From: Bacteroidales bacterium
GTDB lineage: Bacteria; Bacteroidota; Bacteroidia; Bacteroidales; JAUNSR01
Direction of reading: 5' to 3'
Assembly (NCBI GenBank): GCA_036655355.1
Contig: JAVVQG010000001.1
Coordinates: forward strand, 280,045-344,044
Length of the DNA stretch: 64,000 nt
The notes beneath the pieces were generated by a model, which worked only from the letters and a program-made list of their open reading frames with translations, was not told the DNA's origin and did no database searches. The position numbers and the translations under genes were made by a program. How positions within the stretch are numbered: the stretch's first letter is position 1; every line of letters begins with the position of its first letter. This document shows positions 20,342 through 23,302 of this stretch, one piece after another.

Positions 20342-21214
20342 TTATTTTTTAAGATCATTAAAGAGTTCCATCCCTTGTACCGGAGTCAATCCTTCATGCA
20401 CCACAGCATGAACTGCCTGTATCATTGCGGTAGGATCTTCGCTCTGGAAAACATTGCGTCCCATATCCACACCGGCAGCCCCATCGTTGATTGCCTGATA
20501 ACAAAGCTCCAATGCCTCAATTTCCGGAAGTTTCTTTCCTCCGGCGATTACGATCGGCACGGGACAAGCAGCCACCACTTTTTCGAACCCTTCACAATAG
20601 TAAGTCTTCACGATATTCGCGCCATTCTCCGCAGCTATACGTGAAGCCAGTCCGAAATAACGTGCATCGCGCGCCATCTCCTTGCCTACCGCCGTCACAC
20701 CCATCACCGGAATTCCGTAGCGGGTACCCTCATCAACGGCTTTATAGAGATTCGCAATCGTTTTAGCCTCCATCTTACTGTCGCCGATCGCCAACATAAT
20801 AGCCATTGCGGAAACATTCATACGGATCGCATCTTCTATATCGATCAATACGTTATCATTCAGTTCTGTCAGGATAGAGGTGCCGGCATCAGAGCGGAGA
20901 CAAATCGGCTTGTTTGCCGTTGCGGGAATAGAGGAGCGCAAGATACCGCGCGCGCACATTAAACAATCCGCATATTCGATCAAGGGAACGATGTTCAAGT
21001 CGATTCGCTCTAATCCCGATGTGGGTCCCATGATAAAACCATGGTCAAAAGCCAACATCACGGTTTTCCCCGTTTTACTGTTAAAAATGCGATTCATGCG
21101 GTCTTTCATTCCCCAGGGAAGGTTGGATGCGCCTTTAATGTGAAAAGATTGATCAGTTACAGGTGTATCGATAGCAAAACGGCTACCCTCTCTTAAATCA
21201 TCTAAATCTGCCAT
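20342..21214 (-). CDS. lsrF: LsrF-type class I aldolase-fold enzyme (3-hydroxy-5-phosphonooxypentane-2,4-dione thiolase family)
   Basis: Recalled from memory, it is nearly collinear with E. coli LsrF. Shared segments are MADLDD..., [31 protein letters not shown] (Schiff-base Lys), [15 protein letters not shown] and DMGRN.FQS. Confidence 0.75.
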
Positions 21215-21241
21215 GTCTTTTTATACGTATTATATTATTGA

Positions 21242-21904
21242 TTAAATTGCTTTAGAGAATGCTTCAAACATACATGCCCAGGAAGTTGCTCCCGAATCGG
21301 CATACCCGATCGAACGTTCGCCGTAGTTGCGGGCACGTCCGAAATTCGCTTTCATCTGCACCGTAGCCAGCGCACCTTTTTTCGCTGCGTCGGCAGCCGC
21401 GATGAACAGTTCTTTCACGTCGTCGGAGGTCACCTCCTGCATTGCGGCTACAGCAGGTACCAGCGCATCCATGATGGTCTTATCGCCCGGTTGCGCTTTT
21501 GTTTGTTTGCGTACCCCTTCAAGTCCGCCGGCAAACATCGCCTTTACCTGATCCATGTTTAGTTCACTTCCGGTAACATGATCGCTCATTCCTAGCAGAA
21601 GACCGCCGATCAATGTGCTCGTTGAGCCGCTGGTCTGCAACATCACATTAAATCCCGCATCGTTCAGCATTTGCTTGTAATCAGCACCCTCATCGAGTTT
21701 TTCAACCACCGAAGTCATTGCCTGTACGATAGCCGTTCCATGATCACCGTCGCCGATCACCGCATCCAGCTGTGAAAACTCGTCTTCTCTTTCCTTTACC
21801 ATGCACAAAGCCATGCGAAGCATCTCTTTGAACTTATCAATAGGGAGTGTATTCATATACTGTTTAAGAAATTGTTGTGATTTTATTTTCCGATATTCAC
21901 CCAA
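21242..21904 (-). CDS. dhaL: dihydroxyacetone-kinase family, nucleotide-binding subunit DhaL
   Basis: All-helical Dak2 fold with the Mg-ADP motif DAVIGDGDHG and with TSGS/GGLL segments. It overlaps dhaK by 22 nt. Confidence 0.8.
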   Translation of the reverse strand: MGEYRKIKSQQFLKQYMNTLPIDKFKEMLRMALCMVKEREDEFSQLDAVIGDGDHGTAIVQAMTSVVEKLDEGADYKQMLNDAGFNVMLQTSGSTSTLIGGLLLGMSDHVTGSELNMDQVKAMFAGGLEGVRKQTKAQPGDKTIMDALVPAVAAMQEVTSDDVKELFIAAADAAKKGALATVQMKANFGRARNYGERSIGYADSGATSWACMFEAFSKAI

Positions 21905-22890
21905 TATGGGGCATTAGACATTTTATTTTTCAGCAATTCGATGTGATCTTCATCCATTTTGGCGATAATCATCTGGAATCCGTGTTGCTCCTGCACCGTC
22001 AGCAGCTCGTCGATGCGTCCGAAGACAATTTCCACACCCGCTGTTTCAAGGATCTCGGATGCTTTACGATATACGATGCTCATCTCCATCAAGGTAGTTG
22101 CGCCCGTGCCGTTGATGATCAGCAACACCTTATCTCCTTTTTGCAACTGCAGTTTACGCGACAACAACGAAACCATCTTCTCTGCCGTATCGTCAGCCGA
22201 TACGAGTTGCTGAATGCCACCGCCGCCTTCACCGTGCTGCCCCATGCCGATTTCCATTTCACCTGCCGGAAGATCAGAGATCACAGCTTCATTCTGCGGA
22301 TGCGTACATCTGCCCATTGCCACACCCAGCGTAGCTACTCCTTTATTATAACGTTCGCCGATTTCGTACAATTCCTCCAGTGATTTCCCGGCATCTGCGG
22401 CACCTCCCAGGATTTTATACAACGGAATACATCCGGCAAGTCCCCTGCGATCGTCATCCGAAGCATCCAATCCGGCGCTGATATCGTCGTGCGTCACCAG
22501 CATTTTCACTTTGATTCCCACACGCTCTGCCAACTGACAAGCCATGTTGGCGCTCATGAGGTCGCCCGAGTGATTAAGTACCACTAGCAAAATACCGGCT
22601 TCTCGTTTAAACATCTGCAAAGCTTGGAACAAACGCTGTGCTCCCGGAGCCGCAAAAATATCGCCCACTACCGAGCAGTCCAGCATCCCGTCGCCCACAA
22701 AGCCGCTCAATGCCGGTTCATGGCCCGCGCCGCCTAATGTAACGACAGCTACTTTGTCGTGATCTTTCTCATTTGCACGAACTACGATATTTTCGCCCCC
22801 TAGTTTCACCTGCTCTTTATAAGCAGTTACAAAACCGTCTAGAAGCTCTTTTGTAATGGTATCGGTATGATTGATGAATTTTGTTTTCAT
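21883..22890 (-). CDS. dhaK: dihydroxyacetone-kinase family, substrate-binding subunit DhaK
   Basis: Dak1 motifs VTLGGAGHEPALSGFVGDGMLD, VLNHSGD and MGQHGEGG. Confidence 0.8.
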   Translation of the reverse strand: MKTKFINHTDTITKELLDGFVTAYKEQVKLGGENIVVRANEKDHDKVAVVTLGGAGHEPALSGFVGDGMLDCSVVGDIFAAPGAQRLFQALQMFKREAGILLVVLNHSGDLMSANMACQLAERVGIKVKMLVTHDDISAGLDASDDDRRGLAGCIPLYKILGGAADAGKSLEELYEIGERYNKGVATLGVAMGRCTHPQNEAVISDLPAGEMEIGMGQHGEGGGGIQQLVSADDTAEKMVSLLSRKLQLQKGDKVLLIINGTGATTLMEMSIVYRKASEILETAGVEIVFGRIDELLTVQEQHGFQMIIAKMDEDHIELLKNKMSNAPYWVNIGK

Positions 22891-22984
22891 GGTTGGATTC
22901 TATTAAAGGAGACCTTTTACAGCCTCCTGTTTGGGTATTTGATTAAGTTATTTGCACTGATGTGATCACCCTGAGTGGGGTATG

Positions 22985-23302
22985 TTATTTATCAAATTGC
23001 ATCAATTCGAGTGGAATTCCCTCCTCTTCGATAAAGGCGATGGTTAGGTTTTCTCCTCCGGGCATCGGTTCTACTAAGATTTTCTTTCCTTTCAGAGCCT
23101 CCTCCAAATTGGGTACTTCGTAAGCGATGTGAGGAATCTTCTGAATCTGTTCCGGCATCCATGAACCCTCTTCAAAACGCAAGTATTCAATCTTATTCTC
23201 GCTCTGGGTAAAGTCCGTTAACCAAACTTTCAAACCGTCTACATAAAACTCGCCCTCTTGAGGTGTCGTGGTTGGCACTCCAAAATGATTGATTTTTCTC
23301 AT
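22985..23302 (-). CDS. small VOC (glyoxalase/dioxygenase-fold) protein
   Basis: 105-aa ORF with an INHFGV start and HIAYEV...IAFIEE...GIPLELMQ, typical of single-module VOC proteins. Confidence 0.6.
   Translation of the reverse strand: MRKINHFGVPTTTPQEGEFYVDGLKVWLTDFTQSENKIEYLRFEEGSWMPEQIQKIPHIAYEVPNLEEALKGKKILVEPMPGGENLTIAFIEEEGIPLELMQFDK

Follow-up and report, generated by a model that had tools for sequence, protein, structure and literature searches.

An LsrF homologue and its companion genes

We analysed a 64,000-nt stretch of DNA (the whole of which is called the window here) from a Bacteroidales bacterium (GCA_036655355.1, contig JAVVQG010000001.1, positions 280,045-344,044 of the forward strand), in which a gene for a homologue of LsrF, the terminal enzyme of the Lsr pathway, follows genes for a cupin, a small protein of the vicinal oxygen chelate (VOC) fold and the two subunits of a split DhaK/DhaL kinase. 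An earlier note, made from the letters of the sequence, had named all of these except the cupin and had proposed that they dispose of autoinducer-2 (AI-2; derived from 4,5-dihydroxy-2,3-pentanedione, DPD) by means of non-orthologous parts. The four open reading frames (ORFs) that it named are all present on the minus strand, while the fifth core gene, encoding the cupin, and the interleaved haem c and formylglycine-generating enzyme (FGE)-like proteins had been missed. Sequence models were taken from Pfam and NCBIfam, AlphaFold models served as structures, comparisons with the PDB were carried out with Foldseek and phmmer, and gene absences were judged by tblastn with E. coli proteins. The window was compared with 80 related loci, all of them of the DhaKL-linked type, from a scan with one genome per GTDB species, and with longer records of Parabacteroides distasonis and Aureibacter as well as loci from Shinella (L086), Sagittula (L087), Lacticaseibacillus (L088) and Bacillus sp. 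(L089). The sequence occurs only in DNA runs of gut and freshwater metagenomes and in no RNA run, and full-text literature searches found no publication on the module or the surrounding operon.

The ORF at 20342-21214 (minus strand) encodes a 290-aa class I (Schiff-base) aldolase/thiolase of the LsrF family, in which the MADLDD start, a further 32 residues quoted in the earlier note and the motif DMGRNVFQS are all present. It scored 462.9 bits over its full length on the LsrF equivalog model NF006081 (cut-off 297), compared with 181 bits for 2-amino-3,7-dideoxy-D-threo-hept-6-ulosonate (ADH) synthase, 109 bits for archaeal class I fructose-bisphosphate (FBP) aldolase, 27 bits for the FbaB type and 81 bits for BagB/FevI. 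The closest solved relatives are the E. coli LsrF structures (PDB 3gkf; phmmer E = 1e-107), and the identity to the E. coli enzyme is 58% by tblastn. A plain FBP aldolase or ADH synthase was considered as an identity for this protein and ruled out by the model scores (109/27 and 181 versus 462.9 bits); together with the PDB matches and the quoted motifs, these scores bear out its first assignment to the LsrF family.

LsrF catalyses a coenzyme A (CoA)-dependent acetyl transfer from 3-hydroxy-2,4-pentanedione-5-phosphate (P-HPD), yielding dihydroxyacetone phosphate (DHAP) together with acetyl-CoA; its thiolase activity is reportedly the subject of a PNAS paper of 2014. In E. coli LsrF, Lys203 forms the Schiff base, Asp57 is the general base, Asp251 is specific to LsrF, and His58, Gly226, Gly227, Gly253 and Arg254 make up the phosphate site (Diaz et al., PMC2728841). 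D57, H58, K203, G226, G227, D251, G253 and R254 are identical in the window protein and invariant across 88 aligned sequences, and the protein is predicted to carry out a DHAP-releasing C-C cleavage step. The LsrFs linked to DhaKL share 64-99% identity among themselves and 51-60% with E. coli LsrF. In a neighbour-joining tree they form, together with the cytophagal Aureibacter sequence, a monophyletic group in 26 of 30 bootstraps, sister to a clade of E. coli LsrF and two alphaproteobacterial plasmid genes (Shinella and Sagittula), and the window protein falls outside the clade of the experimentally characterised E. coli enzyme. Its phylogenetic placement is thus only partly as had been anticipated: the scores put it with the LsrF family rather than the FBP aldolases, but in a clade of its own beside E. 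coli LsrF. The LsrF family turns up in three gene contexts or more, and a score above the equivalog cut-off is in itself no proof of AI-2 processing.

Upstream of the LsrF gene lie genes encoding DhaL (21242-21904, minus strand; Dak2, 134 bits), the nucleotide-binding subunit of a split DhaK-family kinase, and DhaK (21883-22890, minus strand; Dak1, 315 bits), its substrate-binding subunit. On the dihydroxyacetone-kinase equivalog models, DhaL reached 135.4 bits, slightly below the cut-off of 138.3 (TIGR02365), and DhaK 271.5 bits, below the cut-off of 406.25 (TIGR02363). The DhaL motif DAVIGDGDHG aligns with the Asp-rich Mg/nucleotide motif of E. coli DhaL, and DhaK has kept GGAGHEP, the Asp-loop GD (as SGD) and the histidine of GxGxH(G/S)E (as GMGQHGE) when compared with L. 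lactis DhaK (3ct4). In DhaK-family kinases, as established for DhaK, the carbonyl is bound in hemiaminal form and the CH2OH next to it receives the phosphate, giving R-CO-CH2-OPO3, and the window DhaK is predicted to bind a carbonyl adjoining a CH2OH group. The two genes had been described as overlapping; they are adjacent, but the overlap holds only if TTG at 21904 serves as the start codon of dhaL. Because DhaL homologues are about 204-206 aa long, the ATG at 21856 (204 aa) is the likelier start, which would leave a 26-nt gap after dhaK. E. coli DhaM found no tblastn match in the 64-kb window or in any related locus, in line with the earlier statement that this phosphotransferase system (PTS) partner is lacking nearby, and given its absence the split kinase presumably uses ATP directly.

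The next gene (22985-23302, minus strand) encodes a 105-aa protein with no match to any Pfam or NCBIfam model. An AlphaFold model built from a 52-sequence alignment reached a predicted local distance difference test score (pLDDT) of 96.4, and its top Foldseek matches were methylmalonyl-CoA epimerases and the glyoxalase I of C. acetobutylicum (probability 1.0, query-normalised TM-score, TMq, about 0.7). H6, E39, H58 and E99 are invariant and lie on strands 1, 4, 5 and 8, the canonical VOC metal positions. The modelled fold confirms the earlier assignment to the VOC superfamily, of which the protein is a minimal metalloenzyme. Epimerase- and glyoxalase-type VOC enzymes abstract a proton beside a carbonyl, and for the window protein isomerase or epimerase activity at such a position is predicted. 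The Dak1/Dak2 matches and the VOC fold model agree with the earlier view that a split DhaK/DhaL kinase and a small VOC protein stand where LsrK and LsrG would be.

The fifth core gene, next upstream of the VOC gene (23345-24058, minus strand), encodes a 237-aa cupin lipoprotein of the D-lyxose/D-mannose-isomerase type, for which no Pfam or NCBIfam match was obtained, the family's own sequence model included. Foldseek superposed its model on the D-lyxose isomerase of Thermofilum (7nzo/7nzp) with target-normalised TM-scores (TMt) of 0.86-0.89 and root-mean-square deviations (rmsd) of 1.7-1.8 Å, the match to 7nzo having a TMt of 0.89, an rmsd of 1.8 Å and 31% identity; it also superposed the model on B. 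subtilis YdaE, and phmmer matched the cupin to D-lyxose isomerase with E = 8e-17. In the Thermofilum enzyme, H75, H77, E88 and H143 are the Mn ligands and K86, E156 and D163 are essential (PMC8378251). H132, H134, E144 and H199 of the window cupin align with the four ligands and K142, E212 and D218 with the three essential residues; across 50 homologues all seven are invariant except E144, which is nearly so. The cupin is predicted from its model to be an aldose-ketose isomerase, and its presence speaks for a substrate that is an aldose or a keto-sugar. The protein carries a lipoprotein signal, and lipobox or Tat (twin-arginine) signals were found in 55 of 64 homologues from Bacteroidota and the Planctomycetes-Verrucomicrobia-Chlamydiae (PVC) group; the alphaproteobacterial homologue is a cytoplasmic protein of 197 aa. 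In this the window cupin differs from the known D-lyxose isomerase cupins, which are cytoplasmic and detected by sequence models.

Conservation of the core and its genomic setting

The VOC, DhaK and DhaL genes stand directly upstream of the LsrF gene and on the same strand in 69 of the 71 loci with enough upstream sequence, an arrangement far beyond chance that marks the combination as a genuine conserved module, and a cupin match was found in 69 of all 80 loci. The loci span Bacteroidota, Verrucomicrobiota, Kiritimatiellia and Lentisphaerota, together with one alphaproteobacterium, Polycladidibacter stylochi (L078). Bacteroidales hosts include Parabacteroides distasonis, P. goldsteinii, P. 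faecis, Bacteroides nordii, B. clarus, B. oleiciplenus, Dysgonomonas, Rikenellaceae, Alistipes, Odoribacter and Paraprevotella; Marinilabiliales are also represented, and the verrucomicrobial hosts include an Akkermansia sp. metagenome-assembled genome (MAG) and Puniceicoccaceae. The spread of the module is wide (440 VOC and 1530 cupin clusters at 90% identity) and takes in well-known gut species. Since Dak1, Dak2 and the DeoC/LacD-type TIM barrel are common housekeeping folds, the genes could be thought to serve ordinary central metabolism, as a plain dihydroxyacetone or glyceraldehyde kinase beside a class I FBP aldolase. This is highly improbable, given that strict five-gene synteny with a cupin and a VOC protein across phyla is not expected of housekeeping genes, that the LsrF model returned 463 bits against 109 and 27 on the class I FBP aldolase models, and that DhaK and DhaL both fall under the dihydroxyacetone-kinase equivalog cut-offs.

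In the window, the core genes lie midway in a tightly packed 17-kb gene string on the minus strand (10250-27051), which begins next to a divergent gene for an IclR-family regulator (27317-28132, plus strand; HTH_IclR and IclR_C); in 10 of the loci, as in P. distasonis, an IclR gene likewise stands beside the cluster. The string opens with a beta-propeller/di-haem cytochrome c fusion and a chorismatase-like gene, passes through cupin, VOC, DhaK, DhaL and LsrF, and continues with a Mal s 1-like propeller, a 1327-aa protein, a sulfatase, a cytochrome c synthase (CcsBA) and a TlpA-like thioredoxin. Counts of promoters and terminators were near the shuffled expectation, in a scan that does not cover Bacteroidota promoters. 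One hairpin stands out, at 15404-15375 on the minus strand between the 1327-aa and sulfatase genes, with a 13-bp stem and a run of T behind it; it may act as an internal terminator or attenuator, splitting the conserved genes from a tail made up of the window-specific sulfatase gene and the CcsBA and TlpA-like genes.

The 594-aa fusion protein (25267-27051, minus strand) resembles the beta and gamma subunits of hydrazine synthase (HZS): in the PDB it comes closest to HZS gamma (E = 1e-18) and, in the same entry 5c2v, to HZS beta (E = 1e-16), and it scored 95 bits on NF052342, whose cut-off is 1250. It is predicted to be a periplasmic redox partner. The exported 1327-aa protein (15418-19401, minus strand; Pfam NPCBM, HZS_alpha and FGE-sulfatase) combines an NPCBM module for carbohydrate binding and a beta-propeller with an HZS-alpha domain in its middle and an FGE/PvdO-like domain at its C-terminus, with PDB matches to PvdO, PorK, FGE and HZS alpha and two haem c sites, the CxxCH motifs at residues 831 and 881. 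NF052339 gave this neighbouring HZS-like protein 53 bits (cut-off 800). Every homologue of the 594-aa and 1327-aa proteins carries exactly two CxxCH motifs, and the two proteins are no more than remote homologues of hydrazine synthase, below the equivalog level. The fused ResB/CcsA (CcsBA) cytochrome c synthase (11434-13920, minus strand; ResB and Cytochrom_C_asm) is the cluster's own synthase for its haem c proteins, and was matched inside the cluster in 46 of the 80 loci and also in P. distasonis.

Directly downstream of the LsrF gene, the Mal s 1-like beta-propeller lipoprotein (19413-20339, minus strand; PF22701, 154 bits; matched in 47 of the 80 loci) resembles PDB 3no2 (E = 2e-59), a structural-genomics entry without an assigned function to which the operon context could give a functional setting. 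The FkbO/Hyg5 chorismatase-like protein of RidA fold (24089-25270, minus strand; PF21168 and PF01042) matched the chorismatases 5ag3 and 4bps; its ORF family is a frequent accessory present in 41 sources, and the window protein is cytoplasmic, with no signal peptide detected. The chorismatase family hydrolyses enol ethers. A 247-aa gene of the DAHP-synthase-I family (3-deoxy-D-arabino-heptulosonate 7-phosphate synthase) is inserted between the 1327-aa gene and ccsBA at L031 (15982-16725) and in five other Bacteroides loci, lending this subclade, with its chorismatase-like gene, a shikimate-pathway flavour. The sulfatase (13966-15348, minus strand; PF00884) gave only weak matches, in 3 of the 80 loci, and is specific to the window, outside the conserved set; a link of the core to sulfated glycans was considered and dropped, as the sulfatases near the module, like the GH2 enzyme there, lack conservation in other loci. 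The TlpA/ResA-like thioredoxin lipoprotein at the end of the string (10250-11377, minus strand; AhpC-TSA and Thioredoxin_8) has weak matches in two loci only and is weakly linked to the cluster. A GH63/MGH1-like glycoside hydrolase gene (7854-9338, plus strand) adjoins the string, and the same family occurs at 509-1906 of the Akkermansia sp. MAG locus (L080), which may hint at a glycan source of the substrate. Elsewhere in the window, the region 46000-50000, which has a low GC content (0.31-0.33 versus about 0.45 elsewhere) and contains a DUF5128/DUF4934 six-bladed propeller gene adjoined by a DUF3990 gene, is possibly acquired DNA.

The module is interleaved with exported haem c/FGE-like proteins in 56 of the 80 loci, the same number in which the NPCBM/HZS-alpha/FGE protein was matched. 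The chorismatase-like and beta-gamma-like cytochrome genes are often cut off by the 10-kb flank, but the P. distasonis and Aureibacter records, which extend further, contain the two of them. All-against-all clustering of the ORFs of the loci revealed no other conserved family, no common transporter and no aldehyde-handling enzyme. Carriers near the module are specific to lineages (ABC, SSF, MFS, CitMHS and DUF1097), among them SSF or MFS carriers together with GH130 after the cluster in Parabacteroides, and DUF1097 beside the module in five loci and in Aureibacter. PVC bacteria and the alphaproteobacterium have the five core genes but none of the haem or FGE genes. In the latter, the module follows directly on the ribose operon rbsD-rbsACB-lacI-rbsK and has a CUT2 sugar ABC transporter and a SorC/LsrR-family regulator beside it, and at L071 a CitMHS carrier and a sigma-54 activator accompany it. 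In a Kiritimatiellae MAG (L075, 9071-9814), dhaL and lsrF are separated by a DUF1080 '3-keto-disaccharide hydrolase' gene, and a weaker DUF1080 member is found beside the module in a Puniceicoccaceae MAG (L069, 12081-12782); directly upstream of the latter module are genes for an FGGY kinase, a class II aldolase, an LDH-like (lactate dehydrogenase) dehydrogenase and an aldehyde dehydrogenase. L069 and L080 both have a class II aldolase-family gene flanking the module, and in the Akkermansia sp. an SGL lactonase-like propeller and a GH63-like hydrolase also flank it.

That cores without haem genes are paired with importers and sugar-type regulators suggests catabolism of an imported small molecule, and argues against the biosynthesis of a cofactor. 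The biosynthetic alternative would have DhaKL supply DHAP and the LsrF-like enzyme condense it with a partner, providing a small molecule or cofactor for the haem/FGE-like enzymes. It accords with the interleaving of the module with haem genes, with the frequent chorismatase-like gene and the DAHP-synthase-family gene of six Bacteroides loci, and with the biosynthetic nature of the nearest sister families (ADH synthase, 181 bits; BagB/FevI, 81 bits), relatives of the enzyme including GriI/BagB. We regard it as quite unlikely, since the cores of PVC bacteria and the alphaproteobacterium do without haem and FGE genes and sit beside importers and sugar-type regulators, the LsrF model scores far above the biosynthetic models, and IclR, SorC and sigma-54 regulators are typical of inducible catabolism.

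A predicted catabolic route and its alternatives

On balance, the module, with its five core genes including the cupin, is somewhat more probably than otherwise an inducible catabolic route for a small neutral sugar-like compound. The analysis shows directly to which families and folds the proteins belong, that their catalytic residues are conserved, the synteny and export signals, and that Lsr and DhaM partners are missing from the window and the related loci searched; the order of the steps, the use of ATP, the role of the VOC protein, the choice between thiolase and aldolase chemistry and the kind of substrate are inferred, as follows. The Mn-type cupin would first turn an aldose, possibly a pre-oxidised keto-aldose, into a 2-ketose with a -CO-CH2OH end, in the periplasm of Bacteroidota and PVC bacteria and in the cytoplasm of the alphaproteobacterium. 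After uptake, DhaK/DhaL would trap the carbonyl in a hemiaminal and transfer phosphate to the neighbouring CH2OH to give a ketose 1-phosphate, on which the VOC enzyme would perform either a keto/hydroxy shift, as LsrG does, or an epimerisation at C3. LsrF would then form a Schiff base at the keto group beside the phosphate and cleave the C3-C4 bond, releasing DHAP and a second fragment, which may be an acyl-CoA (by retro-Claisen cleavage, like E. coli LsrF) or an aldehyde (by retro-aldol cleavage). Since the DhaK product R-CO-CH2-OPO3 is the very end bound by LsrF-type enzymes, the parts fit one scheme.

Between the two modes of cleavage we lean to the CoA-dependent retro-Claisen reaction giving an acyl-CoA, because Asp251 has been retained and no aldehyde-processing gene is conserved; the lack of such a gene also suggests central metabolites for both products. 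In Bacteroidota, the exported cupin, together with the haem c, FGE-like and NPCBM proteins interleaved with the core, suggests that the substrate is generated oxidatively in the periplasm from a glycan or sugar, and in most Bacteroidota it would probably be made there by the co-encoded haem c/FGE-like proteins. The gene context (DUF1080; the SGL propeller with the GH63-like hydrolase; SSF/MFS carriers with GH130) hints at a keto-sugar. In a chemically attractive variant that we can only infer, a 3- or 4-keto-aldose would give a 2,4-diulose 1-phosphate, a six- or five-carbon analogue of P-HPD. A full two-compartment sugar oxidation, in which the exported HZS-like haem c proteins would oxidise a free or glycan-borne sugar to a keto-aldose in the periplasm and the cupin would make the diulose, followed by trapping as a 1-phosphate by DhaKL, transfer of the second keto group to C4 by the VOC enzyme and CoA-dependent retro-Claisen cleavage by LsrF to DHAP and an acyl-CoA, is a tentative extension that we consider possible though rather doubtful.

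Several observations weigh against a catabolic route of this kind. A periplasmic aldose-ketose isomerase is unusual. To our knowledge, the split DhaK/DhaL kinases studied so far are all PTS-dependent. Both subunits score below the dihydroxyacetone-kinase equivalog cut-offs, so the substrate class of the kinase is itself extrapolated. In Bacteroidales, no single inner-membrane transporter is conserved with the module, and the uptake step is therefore assumed. Finally, two Rikenellaceae MAGs (L037 and L044) contain the cupin, CcsBA, DhaL and LsrF genes without a full-length match to DhaK or VOC, and represent either a reduced variant or an assembly problem.

The reading from which the earlier note set out, AI-2 disposal by non-orthologous parts, would take DPD or 4-hydroxy-5-methyl-3(2H)-furanone through 3-hydroxy-2,4-pentanedione (HPD) and P-HPD to DHAP and acetyl-CoA, with the cupin and/or the VOC enzyme shifting the keto group, the chorismatase-like enol-ether hydrolase opening the furanone and DhaKL phosphorylating the hydroxyacetone end. 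HPD is the ring-opened hydrate of the AI-2 mimic 4-hydroxy-5-methyl-3(2H)-furanone, and from the chemistry of DhaK its unphosphorylated form would carry the -CO-CH2OH end that DhaK-type kinases bind. The LsrF equivalog cut-off is passed and the LsrF-specific Asp251 kept (for the role of this residue, PMC2728841), and acetyl-CoA formation needs no aldehyde-handling gene downstream. The alphaproteobacterial locus is arranged much like an lsr operon, a CUT2 ABC transporter being accompanied there by a regulator of the SorC/LsrR family (24% identity to LsrR), and the lsr operons of Lacticaseibacillus and a Bacillus, which carry a small cupin and no annotated lsrG, provide a precedent by gene context for a cupin in the place of LsrG.

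Set against these points is the lack of the other Lsr components. E. coli LsrK, LsrG and LsrB gave no tblastn match in the window, where their absence had been noted before, or in the related loci; lsrR, lsrC and lsrD were matched in L078 only, and lsrA through generic ABC-ATPase matches in 5 loci. The binding protein of L078 was examined as an LsrB-like candidate and set aside, as tblastn gave no match between it and LsrB and, among solved structures, it stands closest to proteins that bind ribose and monosaccharides. An LsrB-type receptor is thus absent, and the LsrFs of the module belong to a clade apart from the characterised enzyme. The cupin keeps a full aldose-ketose isomerase site, whereas DPD is no aldose, and AI-2 disposal offers no account of the conserved coupling, in 56 of the 80 loci, to exported haem c/FGE-like proteins, to a module that binds carbohydrate and to a dedicated cytochrome c synthase. 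With no LsrB homologue and a separate LsrF clade, nothing was found to tie the module to AI-2, whose disposal we consider possible, not favoured and on the whole unlikely; the evidence agrees better with the alternative that the earlier note also offered, in which another C4-C6 keto sugar is catabolised.

The isomerase-kinase-aldolase logic of the three main core enzymes also matches a salvage variant of the 'DHAP shunt' for 5-deoxy- and 5-thio-pentoses, which would be isomerised, phosphorylated at C1 by DhaKL and cleaved to DHAP and acetaldehyde or (methylthio)acetaldehyde. Such pentoses are by-products of radical-SAM (S-adenosylmethionine) and polyamine chemistry, these anaerobes rely heavily on radical-SAM enzymes, and the module of the alphaproteobacterium stands directly behind a ribose operon. 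The known shunts, however, use MtnK/DrdK, MtnA/DrdI and a class II aldolase, families that are all missing from the core, and no aldehyde reductase or dehydrogenase is conserved. For a by-product formed inside the cell, neither the export of the isomerase nor the haem proteins of the periplasm would be of much use, and D-lyxose isomerases prefer the lyxo/manno and not the ribo configuration (PMC8378251). Taken together, these points make the shunt improbable.

Comparison with known systems and significance

The module resembles the Lsr pathway of E. coli and Salmonella in its homologous terminal enzyme (58% identity, with the same Lys203, Asp57, Asp251 and phosphate-binding residues), in the general scheme of phosphorylation, isomerisation and cleavage to DHAP and, in the alphaproteobacterial version, in a SorC-family regulator and a CUT2 ABC importer. 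It differs in that its kinase is a split DhaK/DhaL instead of the FGGY-family LsrK and its small enzyme a VOC metalloenzyme instead of the ferredoxin-like LsrG. An aldose-ketose isomerase cupin is added, LsrB/ACD/R orthologues are missing (the ABC and SorC matches in L078 being generic), isomerisation probably precedes phosphorylation, and most loci lie inside a periplasmic haem c operon.

Like the routes for fucose (FucIKA), rhamnose (RhaABD), 5-deoxyribose (DrdIKA) and myo-inositol (IolB-IolC-IolJ), the module would convert an aldose or uronate into a 2-ketose, phosphorylate it beside the keto group and release DHAP and a second fragment, and in the myo-inositol route IolB is also a cupin isomerase. 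Unlike in these pathways, where each step is served by other families, the kinase is of the DhaK type and the lyase of the LsrF type, CoA may be used, Bacteroidota and PVC bacteria export the isomerase, and a conserved enzyme for handling an aldehyde is lacking. With the erythrulose kinases LerK/DerK of Mycobacterium smegmatis and with DhaKLM, the module shares Dak1/Dak2 domains, the hemiaminal His, the Asp-rich motif and the alpha-hydroxyketone substrate class; its kinase is split into two chains like the PTS-dependent type, and is set apart by the lack of DhaM, by its equivalog scores below the cut-offs and by its other partner enzymes.

Other contexts of LsrF are found on plasmids. In Shinella and Sagittula the gene lies beside those for a kinase of the FGGY family, an oxidase resembling glycerol-3-phosphate dehydrogenase, a class II aldolase/adducin protein (in Shinella a fusion with a short-chain dehydrogenase/reductase, SDR) and a sugar (CUT2) ABC transporter, in a non-AI-2 operon of sugar/polyol type. 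These LsrFs share a median identity of 57-60% with the DhaKL-linked clade, and their context differs from the module in FGGY phosphorylation followed by oxidation, without DhaKL, VOC or cupin. The Lacticaseibacillus plasmid has a canonical lsrK/lsrR/ABC/lsrF layout with a small cupin gene (207-563) and no annotated lsrG. This small cupin of Firmicutes, about 118 aa long and also present in Bacillus sp. (L089, 7680-8024), lies in or beside the lsr operon and may replace LsrG; it was considered as a relative of the window cupin, to which it has no sequence match. The 3-keto-glycoside pathways (glucoside 3-dehydrogenase with cytochrome c; DUF1080 hydrolase/hydratase) would share with the module a periplasmic, cytochrome c-linked sugar oxidation to keto-sugars, and gene context connects the two through the DUF1080 gene in or beside the module of two PVC loci. 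The module differs from them in having no FAD (flavin adenine dinucleotide) or GFO-type dehydrogenase, its redox proteins being HZS-like haem c proteins with an FGE-like domain.

All the parts belong to known families, while their combination and the operon are unreported in the literature found, and the module is a new version of the phosphorylate-isomerise-cleave theme that the Lsr pathway exemplifies. The automatic label 'AI-2 thiolase' is attached to LsrF in hundreds of Bacteroidota and PVC genomes, including those of Parabacteroides distasonis, P. goldsteinii, Bacteroides nordii, B. clarus and relatives of Akkermansia. As the enzyme forms a distinct clade and sits in a five-gene module without any other Lsr component, this annotation over-reaches, and such labels in Bacteroidota and PVC bacteria are not to be taken as a capacity for quorum quenching. 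The identity of the substrate, once found, would define a new catabolic route ending in DHAP and a first role for a split DhaK/DhaL without DhaM in PTS-poor phyla, and would give a function to the minimal 105-aa VOC enzyme. The module could also give a functional handle on the conserved HZS-like haem c operon of anaerobic gut bacteria. If the two-compartment pathway is true, the thiolase chemistry so far known only from the quenching of AI-2 would serve gut Bacteroidales, relatives of Akkermansia and marine PVC bacteria as a general strategy of sugar catabolism.

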